Positions 3,501 to 54,228 of a stretch of 64,000 nt of DNA are shown here, one piece after another. The stretch lies in assembly GCA_964627245.1 (NCBI GenBank), contig CAZVGS010000002.1:26923-90922 (forward strand), given 5' to 3'. The DNA comes from an uncultured Gammaproteobacteria bacterium. Lineage in GTDB: Bacteria > Patescibacteriota > Microgenomatia > Levybacterales > GWA1-39-11. Under the pieces are notes generated by a model. It did not search any database, had not been told where the DNA came from, and was given only the letters and a program-made list of their open reading frames with translations. Each line of letters opens with the position of its first letter. Position 1 is the first letter of the stretch. Both the position numbers and the translations under genes were made by a program.

Positions 3501-5728
3501 ATTCTACCGCTACGCGTTTTCTTGTCCAGCAATCGACTTCAAGTTCGATAGCAAAGTTGACACCTTTGTTTGGGAGCACAGTCGTAGACCAGGGAGATGC
3601 TGTAAAAATTGACGCGCAATTCTTGTCCTCTGCAGGCGCACCTATAAATGACGCAACTGCGACTATAAATATTTATAACCCAAGCGGAACCCTGGTTGTA
3701 ACTGCGCAGACAATGAGTTATATCGCAAGTTCAAACGGTATATACAGATATTCATATACCATCCCTTCAACCAGCGGAAGTTATCTGTATGATGTGACGG
3801 CAACTTCGGGAAGCACCACAGGATACGGAGCCGAAAACTTTGAGGTAAGGACAATCGTTTCTGATATCAGTTCTGCCAAATCGGCAGCCGAATCCGCTCA
3901 ATCAGCAGCTGTGTCAAATCAATCGACCCTTTCTACCATCAACACAAATCTCAATACTGCCAACACCAATATTAATACTATCAATACGAATGTTTCTGCC
4001 ATAAAAAACGCTACAGTAAGTGTGACAGGAGTAATCTCTGACTCTTCTCCGTCTGATTCATCTTTCAAAACCAATTTGACTGCCGGGAAAGATGATTTTT
4101 ATAAAAATATGGTAATTACTTTTACATCTGGTGACAATTCCGGCCAATCCAGAAGAATATCCAGCTATTCCCAGTCTGACAAGAAAATAAGCGTCGATCC
4201 GTCATTCTCTTATACCCCTGCCGATGGAGATACTTTTGTTATTAATGTAGGCTCTGTCCGAGCAGAGGAACTTTCTGGCTCGGCCAAGTCAACGATCGAA
4301 TCAGTCCAAACAAAACTCAACTCCCTATCGGGGACTCTGCCGTCAAACTTCTCGGGTGTTTATGACCAGCTTGTAACTATAACCAATCAGCTCTCATCAC
4401 TCGGGGCTATCAAAGGCAACGGAGCCGAGGCACTTTATGATCTTTCTCCTGCCAATAAAGACGATATCAAATATTTAAAAAATAAAATTCTTGATCTGCA
4501 AGCAGCTATGGAAATCACCAAGGCCATGCTTTCGGGTGATCAAAATTCTGTATTTTCCACCTGGTATACATTTAATTCCGTGGTATTGAATATGCTGATT
4601 GCCAATCCGACAGATCGTGACGCGACAATTCCCTTTAAAGCCTATCTGCCAAAAGAGGCCAAACCCGAGCACATCATCTCCTCCGGCGGGATGAAGGTGG
4701 AATATGATGAGGGTGCAAATGCGTATTATGTCAGCGGTGAGTTTGATTTAGATGCAGGCGATTCTATTACTAAACAGGTTGAAATCAAGGACATTTGGTT
4801 GATAGATGAAAGCGAATTGAATGGATATAAAACTCAGGCAAATGATTTATACAATGAAGCCAAGTCTACTGCTTACTCGGCTCAAGCGTTGGTTTTGAAA
4901 AATGATACGAATAACCGGATTGATAAAATTCTACGCTCTCAAAAAGAAAATAACGCCGATCCCACCGAACATATCCAAACCTTCCGCAATAATCAGGATG
5001 ATCTGATATCTATAAAGGATAATCTGAAAAAAATGACAGATCTTGTCACTTCTGCTGGAGCAGGAAGAGGGATGTTGGCATCAGTCGGAGGGATACAGAC
5101 TGTCGCCTCGTGGGGAATTATTGTCATGCTTATAGCCGGTTTTGTAATTTTAGGAGTTTTCTCTTACACAATGTGGAAGCACCAGATGATGGTAACAGCT
5201 CTGGCTTCCGGTAAGCTTCAGGATGGCAAAAGAAGATTGTCGCCTGAATTAGTTGGTAGTAATGTCTTGGATGAGATAAAAAAGCCGATGGTAGCATTAA
5301 GTATACCTCGACTGAATCTTCATTTCTTGACGGCAATTTACAAGTTAAAATGGCTGGCGTTGTTGGGTTTGGTAATAATAATTATTTTTGCTTTTTATAA
5401 AGGGTTTGTTTCCAACCCATGGCAAGCATTAATAACCAATCCAACTTCTATTCCAACAGTCTCACCAACATCTATTCCATCTCCAATACCTAGCCCAACG
5501 CCTGTTGAGAAAAAAGTAACAGTGCTGGAAACCGAAACAGGATGGTTAAACGTCAGGGAAGAACCGACTATAAAAAGTGAAGTTCTAGGCAAGGCAGACG
5601 TTGATAAAACGTATACAGAACTTGACAGAGAAGAAAACGATTTACAGGAAGAGTGGATAAAAATCAGATTAAATAATGAGATCGAAGGTTGGGTTTTGGG
5701 AAAGTATGTAGAAAAAGCTTCAAACTAG
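509..5728 (+). CDS. giant membrane-anchored surface protein (repeat modules, Fn3-like modules, C-terminal SH3b-like domain)
   Basis: 1739-aa ORF. N-terminal hydrophobic anchor. Six ~95-aa repeats carry a G(F/I)(Q/E)PD(L/F)V motif. Two modules end in YYWRVRY (Fn3-like). N/T-rich coiled-coil-like segment, two TM helices near aa 1530-1600, PT-rich linker, C-terminal GW..W..V SH3b-like domain. Confidence 0.75.
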   Translation: MNMKQRVSIKKPLTQKLKGFFSGIRKPLLALFFLFTFSSLFLTSQVFASQSFLSQTGLVNSNNTILEIILSVVLVLSLGLSLAWILIYLKHRHREHEYTGAAGSHKAHDNFSDIKYHLWLLKHLPFKLQPTKVKNHAHQPYTLKDNFLFLLFHPYFGALRKAIAFWLIISISFSSSGIYFLANASPTQAAGDFSIKTGYFLGSGVTRSITGLGFQPELVIIKSDTAAGQLVWKSSAMPANVSTYLGVATADNTETEITLDADGFTVSAALEVNTANVNYTYVALAGSDCTSAGVFCVGSYTGDGASTKSITTGFQPDLVWAKRTTALAGVFRTSSMSTNHAGYFSATANNTTGTFFTTLDGTGFTAGLTNNTNGGKYYYVAFKNIAGKTTVGQFTGNGVDNRDISGVGFEPDFVFVKQDSAVTPVFNTTDMYGDYSAFTTAAANAVNNIQSLDSDGFQVGNSTSVNAAGIVSHYFAIGGSPDPSPAGSFLMERGNYTGTGVSHVISTSFVPNLVIVKGDTIQYAVWSTSLEGDATEYFAAAGAAFTSGINIITDTSGFTVGTNATVNSNGITYEYIAFGNATSPRLGNGAADFYIGSYTGNGLDGRKIDHLGIGADMVVIKRTNGTANQSFWKTTSPVMTDNTTAYFSATTDDTTGVLVKTLDSGGFTLGSNAGTNAAGATYNWFAFKEGANFDIGSYAGDGVADKEITGVGFQPDFVWTKRNSAIAAVHKSSDSGIASNYSQHFMNLANDTNDIKTFTSDGFTLGNSAEVNTSGGTYRYAAWDSSTSSNPPSTPTNSSPAGGATAQNLNATLTGSAYSDPDSNAQTDSQWQVDDDSDFATPVWTRTAGASGVTTSVTSANGTFANELSGKTELDHATTYYWRVRYSDGTYSSWSTGTSFTTNTISTPTHSSPADQATVTTLTPTLTTSAFSDTQSGHTSANAQWQISASSSFSSPIYDSGTVSYGASLVVPSATLSNGNVYYWRVRYQDSTSQWSSYSTATRFLVQQSTSSSIAKLTPLFGSTVVDQGDAVKIDAQFLSSAGAPINDATATINIYNPSGTLVVTAQTMSYIASSNGIYRYSYTIPSTSGSYLYDVTATSGSTTGYGAENFEVRTIVSDISSAKSAAESAQSAAVSNQSTLSTINTNLNTANTNINTINTNVSAIKNATVSVTGVISDSSPSDSSFKTNLTAGKDDFYKNMVITFTSGDNSGQSRRISSYSQSDKKISVDPSFSYTPADGDTFVINVGSVRAEELSGSAKSTIESVQTKLNSLSGTLPSNFSGVYDQLVTITNQLSSLGAIKGNGAEALYDLSPANKDDIKYLKNKILDLQAAMEITKAMLSGDQNSVFSTWYTFNSVVLNMLIANPTDRDATIPFKAYLPKEAKPEHIISSGGMKVEYDEGANAYYVSGEFDLDAGDSITKQVEIKDIWLIDESELNGYKTQANDLYNEAKSTAYSAQALVLKNDTNNRIDKILRSQKENNADPTEHIQTFRNNQDDLISIKDNLKKMTDLVTSAGAGRGMLASVGGIQTVASWGIIVMLIAGFVILGVFSYTMWKHQMMVTALASGKLQDGKRRLSPELVGSNVLDEIKKPMVALSIPRLNLHFLTAIYKLKWLALLGLVIIIIFAFYKGFVSNPWQALITNPTSIPTVSPTSIPSPIPSPTPVEKKVTVLETETGWLNVREEPTIKSEVLGKADVDKTYTELDREENDLQEEWIKIRLNNEIEGWVLGKYVEKASN

Positions 5729-43475: not shown

Positions 43476-45230
43476 ATGGATGATGTTGATTTGATAAAAC
43501 AAAAAGTAGATGTTGCTGATCTAATCGGAAGCTACATTCCCATAAAAAAGGCCGGTAGAAATTTCAAGGCAAATTGTCCTTTCCATAATGAAAAATCCCC
43601 TTCATTTGTCATTTCTCCTGAAAGACAAATATGGCATTGCTTTGGATGTGCAAAGGGTGGAGATATTTTTACTTTTGTTGAGGAATATGAGAGGGTCGGT
43701 TTTACGGAAAGCCTAAAAATTCTAGCCGATAGGGCGAATGTAAAACTTAAAAATAATGTTTTCAGGACAAAGCAGGATGAAAAAAAGAACAGAATTTATG
43801 AGATCAATCATCTTTCTTCGCAATTTTATCATTATCTTCTAACAGAGCATAGATCGGGAAAAAAAGCGTTGGATTATGTTATGGGAAGAGGGCTTACAAA
43901 AGCCATTATTTCCACGTACGTTCTTGGTTATGCCCCTGCGGGAAACTCCCTAGTCAACTACCTTATTAAGAAAAAGGGCTATATGAGGGATGAACTGCTT
44001 GAGGCGGGAGTAGCAACTCTTAGAGGAGGAGGGATGATTGATTTTTTTCAAAACAGACTGATTTTCCCTATTCAGGATTCTAGAGGAAATTTTATTGCAT
44101 TTTCAGGAAGGGCTCTTGCCGATGAGACCATGCCTAAATACATTAACACCAAAGAAACTCCTGTTTATATCAAGGGGGACACCGTCTTTGGCCTTTTCCA
44201 GGCAAAAGAGTCCATCAAAAAAGAAGGCAGAGTCCTTGTTATGGAAGGGGAGTTTGACGCTATAACCTCCTTCAAAGAAGGCATTACCAATGCCATCGCA
44301 GTCAAAGGAACGGCCTTAACAGAAAATCAGATTCATCTCTTAAAGAGATTTGCTAAAAAATTAGTTTTCAGTTTTGATACTGACCCCGCAGGAACCGAAG
44401 CACAAAGGCGGTCAATTGCTCTTATTTCAAAAGAGGGTATTGATGCAGGCGTTGTTATTCCGCCTCAAGGGAAAGATCCCGATGAATTATTGAGAGAGAA
44501 TCCGCTTCTTTTTAAGAAAGCTTTAAAAAATGAAGTCAATATTTACGATTTCATATTAGAAAGTTCCGTCCAAAATGAAAATCCTGAAACTGTTGATGGT
44601 AAAAAACATATACTCTCCCGTACTTTAACTTTCTTGAACGATATTGAAAACGAAATAGTCAAAGAGCATTATTTCAAAAAACTTGCAAAACTACTGGATA
44701 CTTCATACGAATCGGTAGTCAGAGAAGCGGAAAAAATAAAATTGCCCGAGAAAAAAATTGAATCCAAAACCGCTGCAAAGCTCACAAAAAACAGACAAGA
44801 ATTATTGGAAGATCATCTTCTAACACTTATATTGCAGTCGTCAAAGCCGAAAAATGCGATGGCAGCAGCCGTTAGCGTCCTTGATACAGTCGATCTTGTA
44901 ACCCCAAATGCCAAAAGCATCTTTGATACATTAAGGGAATACTTCATGACCTCAGATGATTTATCGGTCACCGAAGTCAACAAGCTTTTGCATGAAAGCG
45001 TTATACCGACTTTTGATATGTATTTTTTAAATCCAATTCATCAGTTTGAAACCGGTGAGCTACACCTTCTAGAAGTAGAAAAAACTGCCCGCGCAGTCAA
45101 GCAGTCAGCCGTTAAAGAAAAGCTCAGAGAGCTTTCAGACAAAATAAAAAAGGCGGAGCAGAAAGAAGATGAAAATGAGCTTGAAAAGTTAAGAAAAGAG
45201 TTTAATTCACTAGCCCTTCATTTTAAGTAG
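43476..45230 (+). CDS. dnaG: DNA primase
   Basis: Zinc finger CPFHNEKSPSF..WHCFGC and a Toprim domain (EGEFDA). Confidence 0.85.
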   Translation: MDDVDLIKQKVDVADLIGSYIPIKKAGRNFKANCPFHNEKSPSFVISPERQIWHCFGCAKGGDIFTFVEEYERVGFTESLKILADRANVKLKNNVFRTKQDEKKNRIYEINHLSSQFYHYLLTEHRSGKKALDYVMGRGLTKAIISTYVLGYAPAGNSLVNYLIKKKGYMRDELLEAGVATLRGGGMIDFFQNRLIFPIQDSRGNFIAFSGRALADETMPKYINTKETPVYIKGDTVFGLFQAKESIKKEGRVLVMEGEFDAITSFKEGITNAIAVKGTALTENQIHLLKRFAKKLVFSFDTDPAGTEAQRRSIALISKEGIDAGVVIPPQGKDPDELLRENPLLFKKALKNEVNIYDFILESSVQNENPETVDGKKHILSRTLTFLNDIENEIVKEHYFKKLAKLLDTSYESVVREAEKIKLPEKKIESKTAAKLTKNRQELLEDHLLTLILQSSKPKNAMAAAVSVLDTVDLVTPNAKSIFDTLREYFMTSDDLSVTEVNKLLHESVIPTFDMYFLNPIHQFETGELHLLEVEKTARAVKQSAVKEKLRELSDKIKKAEQKEDENELEKLRKEFNSLALHFK

Positions 45231-45308: not shown

Positions 45309-46403
45309 TTGACTATGCGTGTAGGTGCTGTAAAAAACGAACATATTGACGAACTCCTGGCAACTGCCAAGAAAAAGGGCTACATAACCCAAGAAGAAAT
45401 TCTCCAAAAATTCCCAAAACCAGAACATTTTCTAGTAGAACTTGATTATCTCTATGATCAGCTTATCAAAAAAGAGGTAGATATTTTTGAGACTGTCGAG
45501 CAGGAAAAAGAAAACCACAAATCAATTGAAGACTTGGAAAAAGAGCTTGAAGCGCTCAACCTTATTCAGGGAGGAACCGTCTCAGATCCTGTCAGGATGT
45601 ATTTGAAAGAAATAGGAAGAATTCCGCTTCTTACTTTTGATCAGGAGGTAGATCTTGCAAAAAGACTTGAGGCTGGAGACGAGTCGGCAAGGAAAAAATT
45701 GGTCGAATCTAACCTTCGGCTTGTGGTTAGTATCGCCAAAAAATACGTTGGACGCGGAATGACTCTTCTCGATCTTATTCAAGAAGGCAACCAAGGACTT
45801 ATCCGTGCCGTTGAGAAATACGATTGGAAAAAGGGCTTTAAGTTCTCAACGTATGCCACATGGTGGATAAGACAAGCAATAACAAGAGCAATCGCAGACC
45901 AAGCAAGAACAATTCGCATCCCAGTCCACATGGTTGAAAACATCAACCGTACCATGCGTGTTCAAAGAAGGCTCATGCAGGAAATTGGTAGACAGCCAAC
46001 CCCTGAGGAAATCGCAAAAGAACTGGAAACCGACCCTGAAAAGGTCAGAGAAATTCTTAAAATTTCTCAACAGCCGGCATCGCTTGATACTCCTGTTGGA
46101 GATGAGGAAGATTCATATCTAGGGGACTTTATCTATGACACTACGGCTCCAACTCTTTTTGACACCGCATCTCGAGGGCTTTTGAAAGAACAGCTAAACT
46201 CGGTGTTGGGAACCTTATCCGATAGAGAAAGAAGGGTGCTCGAAGAACGCTTCGGACTTAAAGACGGAAAGCCAAAGACACTTGAAGAAGTGGGACGCAT
46301 GTTTGCTGTTACTCGTGAGCGTATAAGACAAATTGAAGCAAAGGCGTTAAGAAAACTCCGCCACCCATCCAGAGGCAACAAGCTCCGGGATTATTTAGAA
46401 TAA
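45309..46403 (+). CDS. rpoD: RNA polymerase sigma factor RpoD
   Basis: Regions 1.2 to 4 present: [53 protein letters not shown]. Confidence 0.9.
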
Positions 46404-46408
46404 TCTTA

Positions 46409-47053
46409 TTGAATATTATGAGTGCTGAAATGCGTCGTTTTTCTCATGATCCGATTGTTGATAAGGCTCTCCTTGAAGAGGTGCCTTCTTCTCATGTCTA
46501 TCCCGTTGATATTATGAATTGGGCTTTTATGAGATATCTTGAAACTGGTAATGAAAACTATGCTCACTGGACATATTTAGGATCTCGTTCTGTATATTTC
46601 TTTGAAAAAGACGGTGAATACAGATTACCCAGAGACAAGGAAGAGGATCATATCAAAAACTGCGCCAAAAGAATCTTGGAAATTGAACCTAAAAGTTTTG
46701 GACACGCAATAAAACTTATTCAAGAAGGGGCGATGCTTGTTAATCCGCTCAGCCTTAATAAACCTAATGGAGAAGACGGGCAAACTCTTGAAGGAACAAT
46801 AGGAATTGTTACTGAAGAAGTAGAAGGGGGAATAATTCGAGAAAATGACCGGGAAGAAGCATTAAGGCTGCTTGCAAGATTGGGCGAAAGAAAACGAAAT
46901 GTTTTGGAAAAAAGATTTGGCATTGGGTATGAAAGGTCTTACACCCTTGATGAAATTGGACAAGAAATTGGAGTAACAAGAGAGCGTATAAGGCAAATCG
47001 AAGCCGAGGCACTAAAAGATTTACGCAATTTTCTCACAACAGAAAAATCTTAG
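46409..47053 (+). CDS. sigma-70 region 4-only protein with an unknown N-terminal domain
   Basis: C-terminal [47 protein letters not shown] is near-identical in pattern to rpoD region 4. No region 2 or 3 is present. Confidence 0.6.
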   Translation: MNIMSAEMRRFSHDPIVDKALLEEVPSSHVYPVDIMNWAFMRYLETGNENYAHWTYLGSRSVYFFEKDGEYRLPRDKEEDHIKNCAKRILEIEPKSFGHAIKLIQEGAMLVNPLSLNKPNGEDGQTLEGTIGIVTEEVEGGIIRENDREEALRLLARLGERKRNVLEKRFGIGYERSYTLDEIGQEIGVTRERIRQIEAEALKDLRNFLTTEKS

Positions 47054-47159: not shown

Positions 47160-47325
47160 ATAAATTCACCTCCCTTCATCTCTTCTTAGTAAGACACGGG
47201 CAATATTTATTTACAAGATGTACAAATGATGCAAAAAGGGACTAAGCAGAACAGAGGCTTTGCAAGCTCAAAATAATTTTGTATAATTGGATACTTTCAA
47301 TATCTATTGAAAGTTTGAAAATTGA

Positions 47326-47613
47326 TCCGCGATAGCTCAATGGTAGAGCAGGAAGCTGTAAAAAATGCAGCCCTTGAGGGAAACTTCAAGGTGAATAATC
47401 GGGCTAATTCGGGGAAACCCTAAGCATGTCGAGGGGTAATCCCGAGCTAAATTCCTAAGCCAAACTAAGGACTTGTCCTGAGCGAAGCAGAAGGATAAAT
47501 GTGTAGAGACTATATACCCGACACCTCAAATGGTGATGAGATAGTCCAAGCCTTCTAGAAATAGAGGGGTTCTTGTAACTTCAAGGTTCTAGGTTCGAAT
47601 CCTAGTCGCGGAG
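47326..47613 (+). tRNA. tRNA-Asn (GUU) interrupted by a group I intron. Exons 47326-47359 and 47576-47613.
   Basis: Exons join to a 72-nt cloverleaf: U1-A72 and G73 (Asn identity), D-arm GCUCAAUGGUAGAGC, anticodon loop CUGUUAA, T-arm CUAGG-UUCGAAU-CCUAG. Confidence 0.7.
47360..47575 (+). ncRNA. group I self-splicing intron within the tRNA-Asn anticodon loop (between positions 35 and 36)
   Basis: P1 helix: exon GCUGU (U-1 wobble) pairs with IGS GCAGC across loop AAAAAAU. R- and S-like core elements GAGACUAUAUAC / GAGAUAGUCC form P7 (GACUA/UAGUC). P9 hairpin CCUUCUA-GAAA-UAGAGGG. Terminal G at 47575. Confidence 0.65.
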
Positions 47614-49182
47614 CAAAATGGGACGATGACGATACAATAAGTCACTTTCCGCTGTTATATCAATCTTTTTCTCTTGTTCGAAAATTTTAGCTGTTAAAAC
47701 TGCTTGTTTTTTAACTTTCGAACTTTTGACTTCAACTGCTAGTTCTGACAGAAGACTGAAAGGAGCTGTGAAATTAAAGACTAACTTACCTTCATCAAGT
47801 GCTAAGTTTTCAAATACTAAGGTTATTAGCTTTCTTCTTTCATCTCTATTTCCCTTCAAATATAGTTCTTGCGCTTTTTGAGACAACTCATATAAATTAG
47901 AGCCTAATTCTTGATATTTTGTGCTTGATTGTGAGTGCTGTTTAATCGATGTTACAAGTTGATTCTTTTCTTCTGAAAACTCAGTAAATAAAGTATCGTA
48001 TTTAGCTTTCGATATAACTTCATCTAGTCTGTCTTTGTATAAATTGTCCATTCTCTTTTGTATGCGCTCTAAATTTCTATTAAGCTCTGTAATCGCTGTA
48101 TTGTTGTAATTAATCTCTTCCTTGTGAGCTTCTTTTAATGATTTTCTTATCCAGTCGATTAGCCTCACATTTTTAATTTGGAGTCCATCTAGAGCATCAA
48201 CAATCTGTTCTTCAACTTCTTTTTCTTTAGCCCATGCTTGCTGTTTGCAATCTCTATAATGATTACAGTGCCCATAGACAATTCCTTTCTGAATTTCCCA
48301 AGTGATTCGACCCTCACAGCCTACACATTTGACTATTCCTTGAAATAGAAAGTGGTGTTTTCGATATTTAGGAGTAGTTTTGCTCTTAAGAACACTATTA
48401 ACCTTAGTAAAGACCTCTTCGCTGAGAAGTGCTTCATGTTGTCCCTGATGTACATTCTTGTTCCATCTGATTTTACCAATATAGAAAGGGTCTGAAAGTA
48501 GTTGATGAATTCGACTCTTAACTAACTTATTGCCCGTATATCCACGAAGTCCTTCTTGTGACATCATCTCTGTTAGCTTGCTAAGTGAAATCTCGCCTGT
48601 TGCATAGAGTTCAAACATTCGTCTTACGAGAGGAGCTTTCTTCTCGTCTATTACATGTATCTTTCTCCCTTTTTCTCCTACACTGATGTATCCAGGAGGT
48701 GCTTTTGTTGGCATCCAACCTTGAGCTATTTTCTCTTTCTGTCCTTTCTTTACATTTTCTGATAAAAGCTTAACGTAATATTCAGCTGTAGCACATTTAA
48801 CTCTCCACATAAACCATTCGTGAGACCTTGAATCCCTGTGTAAAACACAGCCTTCTTTTGCAAGTCTTATTTGATGGTTTGAATCTTCATGAATCCATTT
48901 ATCAATAATTGGCACGTCAACAAAATTTCTTGTCAATCTATCAGTAGTCTCGACAATAACTCCAAAAATGTCTTTCTTCTTGATGTATGTAATCATTTCA
49001 TTGAATACTTTTCTTTGCATAACTCCAGAAGCTGATTCTGAAACAGCAAAGACCTTAACAACTTCAAGACCTTCTTTTTCAGCGTATTCTCGAAGATACT
49101 TCTCTTGTGCAGGAAGAGAGTAACCTGCTTCTTCCTGTTCTTTACTTGATACTCTACAAAAGATAACTGTTCTCATATACAC
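47602..49182 (-). CDS. large serine recombinase (integrase)
   Basis: N-terminal CRVSSKEQ catalytic Ser region, recombinase domain, zinc ribbon CVGCEGR..HCNHY, coiled coil. The 3' end overlaps the tRNA-Asn 3' end. Confidence 0.85.
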   Translation of the reverse strand: MYMRTVIFCRVSSKEQEEAGYSLPAQEKYLREYAEKEGLEVVKVFAVSESASGVMQRKVFNEMITYIKKKDIFGVIVETTDRLTRNFVDVPIIDKWIHEDSNHQIRLAKEGCVLHRDSRSHEWFMWRVKCATAEYYVKLLSENVKKGQKEKIAQGWMPTKAPPGYISVGEKGRKIHVIDEKKAPLVRRMFELYATGEISLSKLTEMMSQEGLRGYTGNKLVKSRIHQLLSDPFYIGKIRWNKNVHQGQHEALLSEEVFTKVNSVLKSKTTPKYRKHHFLFQGIVKCVGCEGRITWEIQKGIVYGHCNHYRDCKQQAWAKEKEVEEQIVDALDGLQIKNVRLIDWIRKSLKEAHKEEINYNNTAITELNRNLERIQKRMDNLYKDRLDEVISKAKYDTLFTEFSEEKNQLVTSIKQHSQSSTKYQELGSNLYELSQKAQELYLKGNRDERRKLITLVFENLALDEGKLVFNFTAPFSLLSELAVEVKSSKVKKQAVLTAKIFEQEKKIDITAESDLLYRHRPILLRD

Positions 49183-49369
49183 ATATCATTAAGGAGCCTA
49201 GAGTAAATGTCAACCCTCCTCATTGTTTATATTCTTAAACTTTCTTTCAATCATCTTAACCTTACTAAATCATTACTAAACTGTACTTATACTAAGACTG
49301 TACTTAAACCTAACTTCACATTACCTTACTAGAAGATTACTATGTAATATTACTAGTACTATATAGTAA

Positions 49370-49660
49370 CTATATATTTGTGAATTCCTTAGCTTTTTCA
49401 ATTATTTTCTTCTCTAGTTTTTCCCATAACGCAGAATCCTTAATTCTTGCAACCCAAAAATATGCTTTGTTTCTTCCTTTAACAGATGGCGGAGACACAA
49501 ACCATACAGGCGATACAGGTGAATATTTCGTTGTTCCATATCTAACTACAAATCCGCGTATTTCAACTACTTCTTTAATTAATATGTTTGCTATTACAAC
49601 ATTATCCTTTTTGTCTCTAGATTTTATCTCGACTTCTATTTCATCAATTGTTATTTTCAT
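49370..49660 (-). CDS. SpoVG-like small protein
   Basis: 96 aa. The hydrophobic pattern aligns by eye to SpoVG (ITxD.I.V...A.I.I..E.V.IRGF.V..G...W...P). Unverified. Confidence 0.4.
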   Translation of the reverse strand: MKITIDEIEVEIKSRDKKDNVVIANILIKEVVEIRGFVVRYGTTKYSPVSPVWFVSPPSVKGRNKAYFWVARIKDSALWEKLEKKIIEKAKEFTNI

Positions 49661-49797
49661 TTAACCTCCTTTCTTCAATTTTTCTTAGACTTTCAAAAAA
49701 GGTTACGAGTGAATTGCCAGCTATTTCTGCTTCTTCTTCAGAAAGGTGCGCACCATATTCTTCTAGAAAGATGGTTTTTAGCTCTTGGATAGCCTCA

Positions 49798-50109
49798 TTA
49801 CTCATCTTTTTGCCCTCCCTTGTTTGAACCTGTATCAGATTGCGAAAATAAGCGGGTTTTTAGCCATCTTTGTGCATTAAGTAGTATTATGGGCTCAATT
49901 AGCTCTTGCCTCGCCCAAAACGCATTTACCAAGCGCTCAGCCTCATTTGTGTGTTCGAAGATAAAGATTTTTCTATTTGAGTTTATAGAGTCTTTGATTT
50001 CAAGAAGGTGAACGTCTTTTGCCAGAAGGAAAGATGCGAGATAAAAATCAGCAGTCTCTATAGTTTTACGATTCATATTCATACGATTTATTCGTATGAA
50101 GTATCTCAA
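49798..50109 (-). CDS. hypothetical protein
   Basis: 103-aa ORF in the island with no motif recognised. Confidence 0.4.
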   Translation of the reverse strand: MRYFIRINRMNMNRKTIETADFYLASFLLAKDVHLLEIKDSINSNRKIFIFEHTNEAERLVNAFWARQELIEPIILLNAQRWLKTRLFSQSDTGSNKGGQKDE

Positions 50110-50145
50110 AAGAGGGTGCTCGTGAAAGTTGTCAGTTGTAAATCT

Positions 50146-50877
50146 CTAACTGGCAATTTCGTTGAGAAGTTTTAAATACTGAGGCAATTCTCGCATCGTA
50201 GGGATATCATACCTCTCACAAACTCGATAATACGCTTCTTTATGTTGTTTTTTGAGTTCATTCAGCTTCTTATCATCTTCTAAATTCTTTTTTACTAGTA
50301 TTTCCTCGAGCGCTCTATCAACCATTGATGCTCCATCCTCTTCTGCATATAGTATGTCGTTGGGCTTGCCTTTCTTCCAATATTTAAGAAGCTTTTTTTC
50401 TATTTCGAAGTAAAGATTGAGCCCTAGCTTAATATCATCACTCCCTAGCTGGTATCTTTCTTTCTTCTTTTTGAAATCTTTTGGATTAGCATTTTTGAAT
50501 AGCTTCATTTTCTCTACTAAAAGTGACGCTTCATCATACAGCTCTAACCATTGTTCTCTTGTAATAAATGGGTTGTATCGGACATAAACGCCTTCCTCCT
50601 CAACTTTTACAGGGTGGCCACTGACAACAACCTTATCGTTTTTATACTTATATAACTTTTTCCCTCCTAGATATGCTAACTGGTAGAAAAGGCTAGTAAT
50701 GAGCTGTAATTTTTCAAGCTTCTCAATGTCTTTTGCTGTCTGTTTTTTAAGTTTTAGTTTATTGGTTTTCTTTTTTAACTCTCCCCAAAGTACTTTTATT
50801 ACGAAATTGTTTCCAAGCATGTCTTGTTTAATTTCCTTGAAAAGAGCTTTATTTTCGTCTTCATTTTTCATTTTCAT
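50146..50877 (-). CDS. hypothetical lysine-rich protein
   Basis: ORF trimmed to an internal Met to avoid overlap with the divergent downstream gene. K/E-rich with no motif recognised. Confidence 0.4.
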   Translation of the reverse strand: MKMKNEDENKALFKEIKQDMLGNNFVIKVLWGELKKKTNKLKLKKQTAKDIEKLEKLQLITSLFYQLAYLGGKKLYKYKNDKVVVSGHPVKVEEEGVYVRYNPFITREQWLELYDEASLLVEKMKLFKNANPKDFKKKKERYQLGSDDIKLGLNLYFEIEKKLLKYWKKGKPNDILYAEEDGASMVDRALEEILVKKNLEDDKKLNELKKQHKEAYYRVCERYDIPTMRELPQYLKLLNEIAS

Positions 50878-50937
50878 AATTGTGTGTAATTTTATCATGA
50901 CTGCTGTATCTTGTGATAGAATAGCCCTGCAAATCAA

Positions 50938-52264
50938 TATGTATCACACACAACAAAATAAACTTACCATTTTAATAGACCCACTATATATTCACACAGA
51001 AGCATCGCAACAGCTAATCCACAACCAGGTAGCTATTCATACCGTCTTACACTACTTGAAGGGCATTGTTAACAACAAAGTATCAGTGGAGGTAGTTTTC
51101 CCTAAATTCCTTTGGAGTGGCGATTGGAAAGAAAGATATCAAGCATATGTTCCAGCTGATAATCCATTCTACGGAGATGAATTCTTTAAAGTACTTGAAA
51201 ATAAAGAACCTCTACCAGAGTGGGCAAAACAACGGGTGGAACAAACTAAAAGCTATCTTGAAACGAAAAAAGAACCCTACCTTAAGTTTGAAAAATTTCA
51301 ATCTACACCTGAAGGACTAAAGAAACTTTTAGATAGCATGAAAGATGGAACTCTCTTTATGTATCGAGATGCTGATTACCTTTACCATAAGGGGTTTATG
51401 GAACTTATTGATATATATTTTGCTTATGAATGCGACTTACTGCTAACCGCCAATAGAGTGTTGCATGCGGAGAAAAAGAAGCTAAACAGCGACTACCGAT
51501 TATTTCCCGTAAATTACCCAGAGATTTTTGAAGAAATCGAAACTTTTTTAAAGGGTCATCATATCTACATATCTCATGCAAACCCAATATACGGACTCCA
51601 AATGGCAGTTTTCTATCCTATGACTGATACAAAACTAATGGAATATCAAATTTCTATGAATAAAATTCTAGGACTTAAGAAAGATGCACAAGTATACCAG
51701 TATTTTAGAAGCATGTTTTATCACCGCTATTCATTTATTAGGTATGCGATTGACCAGATAAAATTTAACATGTTTCAAGCTGAAAGGCTCGAGGACAATG
51801 GGCTTAGGGCAAGCCATTATTTCCTTGCAAGCTATCACTTGAATAGTTTCTATCTTAATCTATGGGGTTTTATAGATAATCTTGCTTGGGTAATAAATCA
51901 TCTCTACGACTTAGGATTTAATATAGAAAAAACAGCAACAAAAGTAAGTTTTATTAGCAAAGACTATTTAAAGAAATTGAAAGAAAAAAAGCTAGATATT
52001 TATAACTTACTGAAAGAAAAAGAGAACAAAGATTGGCTTGCAAATCTTGCAGACAAACGGCATCCTGCGGCTCATAGAGAACCTTTGTTTATGTCTCCTG
52101 TGTATGACAAGAATGATATGAGCCTAATTGCAGAAGGCTTGATTGTAGTGAATACAAAAAAAGGACAAGAAATGTTTAAGGCAATCAATCACATGAATTA
52201 TGATTTTGAACAACTATTAAAATTTACTGATAATATATTAAAACTTCTTGAATCTAAAGCTTAG
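50938..52264 (+). CDS. hypothetical protein with C-terminal Rx4H (HEPN-like) motif; candidate abortive-infection/defense protein
   Basis: Start set at MYHTQQ (the upstream part of the track ORF overlaps the divergent gene). C-terminal LADKRHPAAHREPL fits the HEPN Rx4-6H signature. About 442 aa. Confidence 0.4.
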
Positions 52265-52304
52265 ATTTAATCTCCCAATTTCCATGAATGAAATAAAGGG
52301 ATTT

Positions 52305-53438
52305 TTATCCAGCTTGATAGAGGGCTTGAATGTTCTTCTTATTCTTGAATAAATCAGGTTGTTTTTTATTTAACCTTTTCAATGAAGTTTTAATCGCAAA
52401 TTCTGAATTATCAATACCTATCCAGTGTCGTTGAAGTGAATCTGCCGCAACAAGTGTGCCACCTGACCCACTGAAGCAATCAAAAACAATATCTCCTTCG
52501 TTAGAAGAGGTTGATATTATCGTTTTTAGTAATTCAAGATTTTTTTCTGTAGGGTAGACTGGTCTAGTTGGGTCCTTAAATTCCCAAATGTCTTGCAACT
52601 TCTTAAATGGCATTTCGTCAGCGTAAACTTTCTTTCTTGGATTACCTGTGCTTGACCACTCGATTAAACCCTTTGCCTCCAACTCATCTAATACCGTTGG
52701 GTCATATCTCCAATGTCTTCCTTTGGGAGGAAGCATTCCTTTCCATGGCTTACCAGTATTTCCATTGCTTGTTTCACCTGGAGCATGAAGCGGATTGGTA
52801 GTATAGTAGCGTCCATTTACATCTATTTTGTTAAATAACCTACTTATCTCGCCTTCTGACCTTTTATGTTTAGGCTCATTCCAAATATATTTGTCAGTTT
52901 TAGTATAAAAAAGTATTAGGTCTTTAATGTTTCCGTAAGCTTTTCTACTAAAATTTTTAGGATTACACTTTATTCTTGTTATGTCATTTCTAAAATTTTT
53001 TTGTCCAAAGACTTCATCCATTATGACTTTTATATAGTGCCCAATTTTATAATCAATATGCAGATAAATAGAGGCTTCATCTGACATTAATTCACGGATA
53101 AAAATGAGTCTTTCACGGATAAATTCCAGAAAGTCTGCCCCAACTAGAGTATCGCTATAAGCAATGCTGTCCTTAAGACTACTGCTTACATGCGATGTTC
53201 TTTCCTCGCTACCTCTAAAAACAGTGTTTGTTGAAAATGGAGGGTCAATATAGACCAAACTGATTTTGCTCTTCAAATTAAAGTCATTAAGAAGTGTTTT
53301 CATTACTCCTAAATTATCTCCTTTAATCAACATGTCTTTTCCATCTTTATAGGAAATGTTCTCGGCATCTAGCTTTACCTGCTTAGTGTTTGAAAGTATA
53401 GATTGTTTAGTTTTCTTACCTTTATAAGTTAATTCCAT
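52305..53438 (-). CDS. DNA methyltransferase (beta-class N6A/N4C) of an R-M system
   Basis: VYIDPPFS motif (IV) followed by C-terminal FDCFSGSGGT (I). Confidence 0.8.
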   Translation of the reverse strand: MELTYKGKKTKQSILSNTKQVKLDAENISYKDGKDMLIKGDNLGVMKTLLNDFNLKSKISLVYIDPPFSTNTVFRGSEERTSHVSSSLKDSIAYSDTLVGADFLEFIRERLIFIRELMSDEASIYLHIDYKIGHYIKVIMDEVFGQKNFRNDITRIKCNPKNFSRKAYGNIKDLILFYTKTDKYIWNEPKHKRSEGEISRLFNKIDVNGRYYTTNPLHAPGETSNGNTGKPWKGMLPPKGRHWRYDPTVLDELEAKGLIEWSSTGNPRKKVYADEMPFKKLQDIWEFKDPTRPVYPTEKNLELLKTIISTSSNEGDIVFDCFSGSGGTLVAADSLQRHWIGIDNSEFAIKTSLKRLNKKQPDLFKNKKNIQALYQAG

Positions 53439-53445
53439 AGTTTTC

Positions 53446-54228
53446 TTATAATGAGTGCAAAAAATCTCTCAGAAGCAAACTGCTCAAAATGTTGTATTCT
53501 TCCTCATGCGAAGTCAAAAAACGATGAAAATTACTTCTTCCTCTCAAATAAAGTACACCATCATATATTGCTACTTTGACCGCATTAACGTTATTATTTT
53601 TCAATAAAGTTAATCCATCAGCGAACTGCCTATCTTGATGTCCTCCAAAATCAGTTAAGAATTTGGCTTCACCAATTACATATTTACCATGCATACGAGC
53701 TATAAAATCCAACCCTTTTTGCTCTTCATAGCCTAAATTATTTTTGGCAAACTGTTTAAGCTGAGCATCGCCTCCATCTAAAATCGCATCTCTTTCTGTT
53801 GCTATAAACTCAAGTTCTGGTAATACCTCTAATCCTAAAGTTTTTTGATTAAGCCACCTTCTAAAAAGAGGACCTATTTGCCTATTCGTTTCCTTTGGCT
53901 CTGAAGTGCGAGCATATATTTTCTCCAGTCCCATTTCATATAATCTGCCACAAATTCGCTTAACTGTTTCTGGATTTCTGTCTATTGCAGATTTATCTCT
54001 TCTCAAGAAAGGAATATATGAGTCCTTAATCGGAAACAATTCTAAACTAAGCAAACTCTTCATAAGCTCTGAATCGTCTCTACTCTTAAATGCTACCTCT
54101 ACATTGCCCCAAGCGGTTTCATTTACTTCTCTTATCGTATCGGGTGCCAATGGATAAACAGTAAAAAGCTCATCAAGATAATTTTTTTGATTTGCAAATT
54201 GGATACTTAAGTCTGTCCAATAATTCAT
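53446..54228 (-). CDS. type II restriction endonuclease (PD-(D/E)xK) candidate
   Basis: Sits between the C-protein and the MTase on the same strand. Putative catalytic D..IGEAK motif. Confidence 0.5.
   Translation of the reverse strand: MNYWTDLSIQFANQKNYLDELFTVYPLAPDTIREVNETAWGNVEVAFKSRDDSELMKSLLSLELFPIKDSYIPFLRRDKSAIDRNPETVKRICGRLYEMGLEKIYARTSEPKETNRQIGPLFRRWLNQKTLGLEVLPELEFIATERDAILDGGDAQLKQFAKNNLGYEEQKGLDFIARMHGKYVIGEAKFLTDFGGHQDRQFADGLTLLKNNNVNAVKVAIYDGVLYLRGRSNFHRFLTSHEEEYNILSSLLLRDFLHSL

Follow-up and report, generated by a model that had tools for sequence, protein, structure and literature searches.

Group I introns are known from four classical types of intron-split bacterial tRNA, and this number was raised to 21 by Williams (bioRxiv 2020, 10.1101/2020.01.27.920355), whose set includes, as cited by Nakagawa et al. 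(mSystems 2026, PMC13011429), a class named 'Asn.4Ug'. In the latter study, 22 tRNA genes with group I introns were found in 95 complete Patescibacteria genomes; 15 of these were tRNA-Asn(GUU) and three were tRNA-Asp(GUC), all interrupted between positions 35 and 36 (35/36). A set of 4,934 complete genomes contained 28 introns at 35/36, including 19 in Patescibacteria; 25 of the 28 were classed as IA, and none of the Patescibacteria tRNA introns was classed as IC. HNH endonuclease genes were present in four of the Patescibacteria tRNA-Asn introns, and the intron-bearing gene was the sole tRNA-Asn copy in the Patescibacteria cases tested. Precise GTP-dependent self-splicing was obtained in vitro for one tRNA-Asn intron and one tRNA-Asp intron and the ligated junction was sequenced. 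Mutation of omega-G to C blocked exon ligation, and the tRNA-Asp mutant failed to yield mature tRNA. Such loci were recurrently miscalled by ARAGORN/tFind as tRNA-Thr(UGU) interrupted at 33/34, with a shift of two bases (PMC13011429).

The stretch of DNA analysed here (the window) is 64 kb in length. An initial annotation had placed a group I intron at 35/36 of a tRNA-Asn(GUU) gene in it and had taken an insertion at this site to be undescribed. The intron was upheld by a covariance model, covariation, an intron-less ortholog, and similarity to a self-splicing relative. The supposed novelty was not: the class is 'Asn.4Ug' of Williams (2020) and the main subject of PMC13011429, and has already been both listed and verified by experiment in Patescibacteria. 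Both the insertion site (ARAGORN, intron-less ortholog) and the host phylum place the window intron in the 35/36 tRNA-Asn/Asp class of Patescibacteria. With a probability of about 90%, 47326-47613 is a functional tRNA-Asn(GUU) gene containing a compact, ORF-less, self-splicing group I intron between U35 and U36.

The interrupted gene and its exon junction

The tRNA-Asn(GUU) gene at 47326-47613 of the forward strand is split between U35 and U36 by a group I intron of 216 nt (Table 1). Run in intron mode, ARAGORN recognized tRNA-Asn(gtt) interrupted by 216 nt at gctgt^taact, and it folded the ligated exons of 34 and 38 nt into a 72-nt cloverleaf with U1-A72, G73, the loop CUGUUAA, and the anticodon GUU. 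The coordinates, exon lengths, and insert length that had been annotated agree with the sequence, and the tRNA is canonical, as had been described, with one mismatch in the anticodon stem, G27.A43. This mismatch is a lineage trait and not a sign of decay, because it is also present in the intron-less ortholog described below and in a published Microgenomatia tRNA-Asn. Every tRNA-Asn gene that was recovered likewise has U1-A72 and G73; CCA is not encoded at the end of the 3' exon.

In default mode, ARAGORN reported five other tRNAs in the window and missed this gene, which is another case of a tRNA-Asn gene overlooked by a standard tRNA scan. Missed intron-split tRNAs lower the completeness estimates of candidate-phyla-radiation genomes, a point already made in PMC13011429. 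No second tRNA-Asn was detected within the 64-kb window by ARAGORN, and the interrupted gene is probably the only tRNA-Asn of its genome. A search of the window for an attR, a repeat of the tRNA 3' end, was likewise negative.

Orthologous loci were identified through DnaG, because a homolog search with the 214-aa sigma-region-4 protein encoded just upstream of the tRNA matched only itself. Contigs encoding a DnaG 71-76% identical to that of the window were fetched, and these share the order dnaG-sigA-tRNA-Asn; downstream of tRNA-Asn, synteny with the relatives is essentially absent. The best named DnaG homologs were from Ca. Levybacteria (71% identity) and a 'Patescibacteria group bacterium', which, together with the syntenic NCBI loci, indicates a Levybacteria-like host in Patescibacteria/Microgenomates. 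A Clostridia host, to which the dnaG-sigA context and a 'Cthe_2314' HEPN domain had pointed, was rejected on the strength of these DnaG homologs. The sequence of the locus was found, identical, only in one unannotated Logan metagenome assembly (SRR20718477).

One of the orthologous loci (L132, GCA_030645455.1, Ca. Levybacteria) is intron-less. Its tRNA-Asn reads GCTGTTAAC, which is Asn GUU, and equals the predicted ligated exons of the window at 71 of 72 positions, the remaining position being a change in the T-loop. The 5' exon is identical to the 5' half of this gene, and the 3' exon agrees with it at 37 of 38 positions. Since the intron-less allele reproduces the predicted ligated exons, the junction GCUGU^UAAC was set without the U-1/omega-G rule, and no alternative junction reproduces the L132 tRNA-Asn sequence. 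As had been annotated, the intron so delimited ends in G.

The same letters could be read as a tRNA-Thr(UGU) gene with its intron at 33/34, the boundary being shifted by two bases; ...GCU + UGUAAC... also yields a 7-nt loop, CUUGUAA, and this miscall is recurrent at such loci (PMC13011429). We regard this as extremely improbable, as the intron would then end in U (47573) and not in G, the U.G wobble of P1 would be lost, U1-A72 and G73 fit the other tRNA-Asn genes recovered, and the intron-less gene is Asn GUU. The 33/34 boundary was rejected, being excluded by the L132 allele.

The tRNA-Asn(GUU) gene is preceded by a putative promoter, proposed from its match to the consensus, and by a hairpin in the presumed leader. 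A leader hairpin lies at the same place, with a different sequence, in L132 and in two intron-bearing orthologous loci, L134 and L136; these hairpins were folded singly and were not aligned by MAFFT/RNAalifold.

Table 1. Features of the tRNA-Asn(GUU) locus in window coordinates (intron nt 1 = 47360; A1 and A2 are the alignments described in the text)
Feature	Position	Strand	Basis
dnaG, upstream of tRNA-Asn	43476-45230		
sigA, upstream of tRNA-Asn	45309-46403		
Small sigma-region-4 protein, 214 aa, just upstream of tRNA-Asn	46409-47053		
Promoter-like site TTGCAA-16-TATAAT, ~39 nt upstream of tRNA position 1	47260-47287	+	Consensus scan, 10/12 matches
9-bp hairpin, presumed 5' leader of pre-tRNA	47293-47314	+	Fold -7.3 kcal/mol, z = -2.6
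5' exon, tRNA positions 1-35, ends in U35 (intron U-1)	47326-47359 (34 nt)	+	ARAGORN intron mode
P1, exon G31-U35 (47355-47359, -5 to -1) x intron G8-C12 (47367-47371)	47355-47371	+	Helix map
Group I intron, no ORF	47360-47575 (216 nt)	+	RF00028, covariation in A1 and A2, ORF check
P2, 8-bp hairpin with GAAA tetraloop, intron 13-20 x 25-32	47372-47391	+	Helix map
P3 5' strand, partner 47517-47521, intron 40-44 x 158-162	47399-47403	+	Covariation
P4, 47409-47414 x 47440-47445, intron 50-55 x 81-86, encloses P5	47409-47445	+	Covariation
P5, 47418-47421 x 47433-47436, intron 59-62 x 74-77	Within 47409-47445	+	Helix map
P6, 47446-47447 x 47501-47502, intron 87-88 x 142-143	47446-47502	+	Helix map and A1
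P7 5' strand, G147, bulged A148, G149-U154, within GUGUAGAGACUAUAUACC core	47506-47513	+	A1, A2
P3 3' strand	47517-47521	+	Helix map and A1
P8, 4-bp hairpin CACC/GGUG with 6-nt loop, intron 163-166 x 173-176	47522-47535	+	Covariation
P7 3' strand (AUAGUCC), intron 182-188	47541-47547	+	Helix map, A1, A2
P9.0, 47548-47550 x 47572-47574, intron 189-191 x 213-215, encloses P9	47548-47574	+	A1, A2
P9, 47551-47557 x 47562-47568, GAAA tetraloop, intron 192-198 x 203-209	Within 47548-47574	+	A1
omega-G, final intron nucleotide, G216	47575	+	Sequence; junction from intron-less L132
3' exon, tRNA positions 36-73	47576-47613 (38 nt)	+	ARAGORN intron mode

Fold of the intron and proposed splicing

A covariance-model search and folding of P1 to P9 had been proposed as checks with the initial annotation, and the outcome of both was positive. 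The Rfam model Intron_gpI (RF00028) matched 47349-47568 over model positions 1-253 of 253 with 77.2 bits (E=7.2e-18), the gathering score being 50 bits, and this score is far above chance. The minimum-free-energy fold had z = -4.1 relative to shuffles and recovered P1, P2, P4, P5, P8, and P9 without constraints. In the projected helices P1-P9 and P9.0, all pairs are standard. No ORF of more than 33 aa overlaps 47360-47575, in keeping with the absence of an ORF noted at the outset.

Covariation was assessed in an alignment of 19 family members from several phyla (A1) and in an alignment of the five closest sequences (A2). In A1, 89% of cells were paired, and displacing the partners by 1-3 columns lowered this to 33-46%. 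Both partners had changed in 30 of 51 pairs, and none of 500 shuffles reached the observed values. Strong covariation was found in P3, P2, P4, P8, and P9. In A2, 94% of cells were paired and 18 pairs had changes on both sides. The group I core, consisting of P3-P4-P6 and P7-P3-P8 with a P3/P7 pseudoknot, is supported by covariation in the window intron.

The pairing of exon GCUGU with intron GCAGC that had been proposed for P1 was recovered; it closes the loop AAAAAAU, and U35.G8 is the wobble pair that marks the 5' splice site. Its U.G, G-C, and U-A pairs are unchanged in all 19 members of A1, and the U.G pair also in all five of A2. P2 is 97% paired, with double changes at four pairs in A1 and seven in A2. 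All five pairs of P3 have compensatory changes (94% paired, A1). P4, which together with J3/4 reads AAUUCGGGGAAACC, is 99% paired with four of six pairs covarying in A1 and is unchanged among the five closest relatives (A2); P5 pairs more weakly across the wider family (67% of cells, A1). P6 carries a lineage-specific P6a/P6b extension of ~53 nt that is shorter or absent in L134, L136, and the tRNA-Asp introns considered below.

P7, which the initial annotation had also built from the core elements, is formed by GACUAU x AUAGUC in a pseudoknot with P3. It is 93% paired in A1, where two of seven pairs covary and the rest are invariant, and it is invariant in A2. Its G149-C187 pair is presumed, by homology to Azoarcus, to be the guanosine-binding pair. 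P8 is 99% paired with three of four pairs covarying (A1), and it is minimal (4 bp), without the tetraloop-receptor motif present in many relatives. The P9 hairpin that had been predicted is present, with a GAAA loop and six of seven pairs covarying (A1). For P9.0, 100% of cells are paired in A2; the window has AAG/CUU where other members have ACG/CGU or ACG/UGU. A convincing candidate for P10 was not identified.

Splicing would proceed as follows. The gene would be transcribed, probably from the TTGCAA/TATAAT site, and the intron would fold into its P1-P9 core. The last five exon bases would pair with the guide and set U35.G as the wobble pair of the 5' splice site, where free guanosine docked in P7, likely at G149-C187, would attack after U35. 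G216, placed by the 3-bp P9.0, would next occupy the same pocket, and attack by the 3'-OH of U35 on the 3' side of G216 would ligate U35 with U36, so that the anticodon reads GUU again. Because no convincing P10 was found, it is probably the anticodon stem of the tRNA that keeps the two exons together. Catalysis by the window RNA is expected by analogy with the tRNA-Asp intron of GCA_001029755.1 and the tRNA-Asn intron of GCA_016700035.1, for which guanosine-dependent splicing was shown (PMC13011429).

The very short P8 and the absent P10 would also suit a catalytically dead relic in a tRNA pseudogene, with tRNA-Asn supplied from elsewhere in the genome; the check for a second tRNA-Asn, which found none, covers the 64-kb window. 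We consider this very improbable. The core helices are all intact and covarying, a relative with demonstrated splicing has an identical core, and the exons are undamaged and agree with the intron-less ortholog at 71 of 72 positions. In addition, the intron-bearing gene was the sole tRNA-Asn copy in the published Patescibacteria that were tested (PMC13011429). A gene that splices and is functional is the preferred reading.

Orthologous loci and the wider intron family

Two further orthologous loci carry a homologous intron at the corresponding site of tRNA-Asn, with Rfam scores of 68-69 bits. The intron of L136 (GCA_041906695.1) is 200 nt in length and its exons are identical to those of the window, while that of L134/L135 (GCA_964488225.1) is 185 nt in length and its anticodon stem has a compensated change of G31-C39 to A31-U39. 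These are the nearest relatives of the window intron, with 75-78% identity. The intron is therefore retained in three of the four related genomes examined at the dnaG-sigA-tRNA-Asn locus, and its presence or absence is, from these contigs, polymorphic at a single orthologous site.

Because a close relative has an intron-less allele, the intron is dispensable. This bears on the possibility that the intron splices and serves mainly as a GTP/Mg2+-dependent regulatory gate on tRNA-Asn supply in an organism of reduced genome, and not as a neutral passenger, an idea raised for Patescibacteria by Nakagawa et al. (PMC13011429) and compatible with the explanation preferred here. Retention in three of four genomes is in its favor, but given the intron-less allele in L132 and the lack of any sensor element visible in the sequence, such a main role is very improbable.

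The wider family was scanned in one genome per species with a pattern consisting of the P1 3' strand, P2, and J2/3. Apart from the source genome of the window and GCA_022846035.1, 43 loci were obtained, of which ~33 are anticodon-loop introns and ~10 are fortuitous hits to coding DNA. As the pattern misses L134 and L136, the family must be larger than these counts. Introns at 35/36 of tRNA-Asn(GUU) were found in ~22 Burkholderiaceae, Lautropia, and Zeimonas representatives, and also in several Patescibacteria, a Chloroflexi, an Actinomycetota, an Omnitrophica, and a gammaproteobacterium. The other hosts were tRNA-Tyr(GUA) and tRNA-Asp(GUC) at 35/36 and tRNA-Thr(UGU) at 36/37. The guide GCAG faces exon YUGU in all anticodon-loop cases, and 10 of 18 sampled loci exceed the Rfam threshold. 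For the scan loci, a 3' splice site was accepted only if it left the anticodon in register within the loop, and four Burkholderiaceae loci were set by hand.

A narrower pattern applied to metagenomes gave three loci. When the locus was compared by BLAST with phage records, the sole match was one of 46 nt to the core of the S-PM2 psbA intron; no plasmid record matched. Viral contigs had no match to the family pattern; a broader IC3 core pattern matched 84 viral contigs, and in none of them was the host a tRNA-Asn. The broader IC3 core motif search recovers Leu(UAA) and Met(CAU) introns.

New relative to the published record are a member of the 35/36 intron class from a Levybacteria-like host, a set of orthologous loci with the intron present in three genomes and absent in one, a tRNA-Asn intron that belongs to the compact lineage previously known from Microgenomatia tRNA-Asp genes, and a large number of Burkholderiaceae tRNA-Asn 35/36 introns. 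These are useful data on the evolution of endonuclease-free introns and do not open a new question.

Comparison with described tRNA introns

The mark of subgroup IA in the Michel-Westhof scheme is the presence of extra P7.1/P7.2 helices between P7 and P3. These are absent from the window intron, in which the 29 nt between the P7 strands consist entirely of J7/3, P3', P8, and J8/7. Global pairwise identity was 63-76% to all introns compared and did not discriminate between subgroups, and the P7-to-P7' spacing was therefore used; it is 29 nt in the window, 30-38 nt in the Microgenomatia tRNA-Asp introns and in IC3-labelled introns, and 60-77 nt in IA-labelled or P7.1/P7.2-bearing introns. According to the helix map, the architecture is compact and IC3-like: P2 is present, the P5 and P9 hairpins are simple, and P2.1, P5abc, and P7.1/P7.2 are all lacking.

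The classical IC3 introns of tRNA-Leu(UAA) at 34/35 in Nostoc/Anabaena and of tRNA-Ile(CAU) in Azoarcus resemble the window intron in being small, ORF-less, and located in the anticodon loop, in the GAAA tetraloops of P2 and P9, in the lack of P5abc and P7.1/P7.2, and in the J3/4-P4 AAUUCGGNGAAACC and J6/7-P7 GUAGAGACUA motifs. They differ in host tRNA, insertion position, and guide, and the P8 of the window lacks the 11-nt receptor. The motifs AAUUCGGGGAAACC and GUGUAGAGACUA are common to the window and the IC3-labelled tRNA introns (Nakagawa Table S5). The intron is described here as IC3-like in architecture, and its formal subgroup label is uncertain because no Patescibacteria tRNA intron was classed as IC in PMC13011429.

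An intron labelled IC3 at 35/36 of tRNA-Asn(GUU) is known from Christensenella sp. GCA_022846035.1 (Bacillota_A; 210 nt; Nakagawa Table S5). It shares with the window intron its compactness, the frame of the P1 3' strand and P2 (GCAGCCCU..AGGGAAACUU..AGGUGAA) with compensatory changes, and the GUGUAGAGACU core. The two differ in phylum, in the P9.0 region, and in the 3' tail, and identity is ~60% over aligned columns.

The published Patescibacteria tRNA-Asn introns at 35/36, represented by GCA_016700035.1 (Saccharimonadia, spliced in vitro) and GCA_016700135.1 (Microgenomatia), agree with the window in tRNA, site, U-1, omega-G, and P1 guide. The anticodon arm of GCA_016700135.1 (Table S3) is identical to that of the window, including G27.A43, but its intron is different and longer. 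The published introns have 60-71 nt between the P7 strands (P7.1/P7.2-type, IA in the paper), compared with 29 nt in the window; their J3/4 and J6/7 differ from those of the window, and some contain HNH genes.

A closer match is provided by the Microgenomatia tRNA-Asp(GUC) introns at 35/36 of GCA_001029755.1 (196 nt, spliced in vitro) and GCA_030583725.1 (184 nt; PMC13011429 Tables S3 and S4). Like the window intron, they are compact and ORF-less, are inserted at 35/36 after CUGU with the guide GCAG, and belong to the same phylum and class-level group. P4, P6, P7, J3/4 (GGCUAAUUCGGGGAAAC), and J6/7-P7 are identical, the last being an invariant 23-mer core (UAAAUGUGUAGAGACUAUAUACC). Among the published introns compared, they gave the top pairwise alignment scores, with 67.5% and 71.5% identity to the window over aligned columns. 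They differ in having Asp as host and in the sequences of P2, P5, P8, and P9, with compensatory changes, and the P6 extension of the window is ~50 nt longer.

It is possible, although doubtful, that a single compact lineage free of endonucleases occupies 35/36 of the Microgenomates genes for tRNA-Asp(GUC) and tRNA-Asn(GUU) alike, that a distinct P7.1/P7.2 lineage occupies the same site of an identical tRNA-Asn arm elsewhere in Microgenomatia, and that introns moved between genes or replaced one another, independently of a homing endonuclease, through the shared CUGU target and its GCAG guide, as by reverse splicing. If this were true, the polymorphism at the dnaG-sigA-tRNA-Asn locus would make gain or loss datable. 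By the sequence features compared above, the window intron stands closer to the introns of Microgenomatia tRNA-Asp than to the one published for tRNA-Asn in that group.

Anticodon stem, upstream hairpin and an 11-nt repeat at the tRNA-Asn locus

The anticodon stem of the tRNA-Asn begins at its top with a G27.A43 mismatch (window 47352 and 47583), which is common to the window, two orthologous dnaG-sigA-tRNA-Asn loci (L132, without intron, GCA_030645455.1; and L136, with intron, GCA_041906695.1), and the Microgenomatia tRNA-Asn published for GCA_016700135.1, and is therefore a lineage trait. A third ortholog, the intron-bearing L134 (GCA_964488225.1), carries a compensated G31-C39 to A31-U39 change, by which its fifth P1 pair is weakened.

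The 11-mer AACTTCAAGGT is present twice at this locus. The first copy lies in the P2 3' strand, at intron nt 23-33; the second occupies nt 2-12 of the 3' exon, comprising the 3' strand of the anticodon stem and the variable loop. Mononucleotide shuffling of the intron produced an intron-exon match of at least 11 nt in only 7 of 5000 trials; in the closest relatives (L134 and L136) the two share 6-mers only. Through the repeat, the 5' strand of P2 could have the 3' exon as an alternative partner; or the repeat, noticed post hoc, could be due to chance.

Upstream of the gene lies a promoter-like site close to consensus and, downstream of it, a hairpin of 7-9 bp whose end is 11-17 nt short of tRNA position 1. 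All four orthologous loci have this hairpin, with differing sequences (z = -0.9 to -3.1), and when an alignment-based test was applied across these loci the hairpins did not align. It may terminate transcription of the operon upstream, or be a structure conserved in the leader.

Coordinates of features at the tRNA-Asn loci and of related intron loci
Feature	Locus	Coordinates	Strand
Promoter-like site and upstream hairpin	Window	47260-47325	
Upstream hairpin region	L132	8029-8066	
Upstream hairpin region	L134	9254-9297	
Upstream hairpin region	L136	9200-9243	
AACTTCAAGGT, copy 1	Window	47382-47392	
AACTTCAAGGT, copy 2	Window	47577-47587	
Large serine recombinase ORF, overlapping tRNA 3' end	Window	47602-49182	-
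Minus-strand genes abutting tRNA 3' end	Window	47602-54228	-
Group I intron, contig labelled archaeal	L114 (CAZKFK010000009.1)	4141-4351	-
tRNA-Asn introns, Burkholderiaceae/Lautropia/Zeimonas	L088, L092, L097, L100-L105, L107, L111-L113, L115, L117, L119-L122, L127		

Putative island downstream of tRNA-Asn

The stop codon of the recombinase lies within the T-stem of the tRNA, so that ORF and tRNA overlap by the last 12 nt of the latter. The recombinase is followed by genes for DUF5659, a Cthe_2314-like HEPN protein, an N6/N4 DNA methylase, and a Tsp45I-type restriction enzyme. The GC content of the minus-strand region is 34-35%, versus 38-40% in its flanks. The region looks like a small integrated island with a restriction-modification system beside tRNA-Asn. 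A second copy of the tRNA 3' end was searched for in the window and was not found, and synteny downstream of tRNA-Asn was essentially absent in relatives.

Related introns in other genomes

The IC3-type core pattern AATTCGGNGAAACC-N55-85-GTAGAGACTA matched 84 viral contigs (IMG/VR; L002-L085). ARAGORN assigned 23 of the introns to tRNA genes, namely Met(CAU), Leu(UAA), Gln(CUG/UUG), Tyr(GUA), and Arg(GCG/UCU); the remaining 61 matches lie outside any tRNA that it recognises.

A member of the window intron's family on a contig of a MAG labelled Candidatus Woesearchaeota archaeon (L114) gave the top score in the sample (82.7 bits, Rfam group I model), and a run of N falls exactly at the expected position of its 5' exon. 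This contig is probably mis-binned Patescibacteria, a suspicion that Williams also raised about a comparable Pacearchaeota case (10.1101/2020.01.27.920355).

The one-genome-per-species scan also identified tRNA-Asn(GUU) 35/36 introns of this family in Burkholderiaceae, Lautropia, and Zeimonas, in approximately 22 species-level genomes that are mostly MAGs. At most of these loci the intron begins with UAAC, as does the 3' exon, and ARAGORN misplaced the junction as a result. In the published survey of complete genomes, only one Pseudomonadota intron was counted at 35/36 (Nakagawa et al., PMC13011429).
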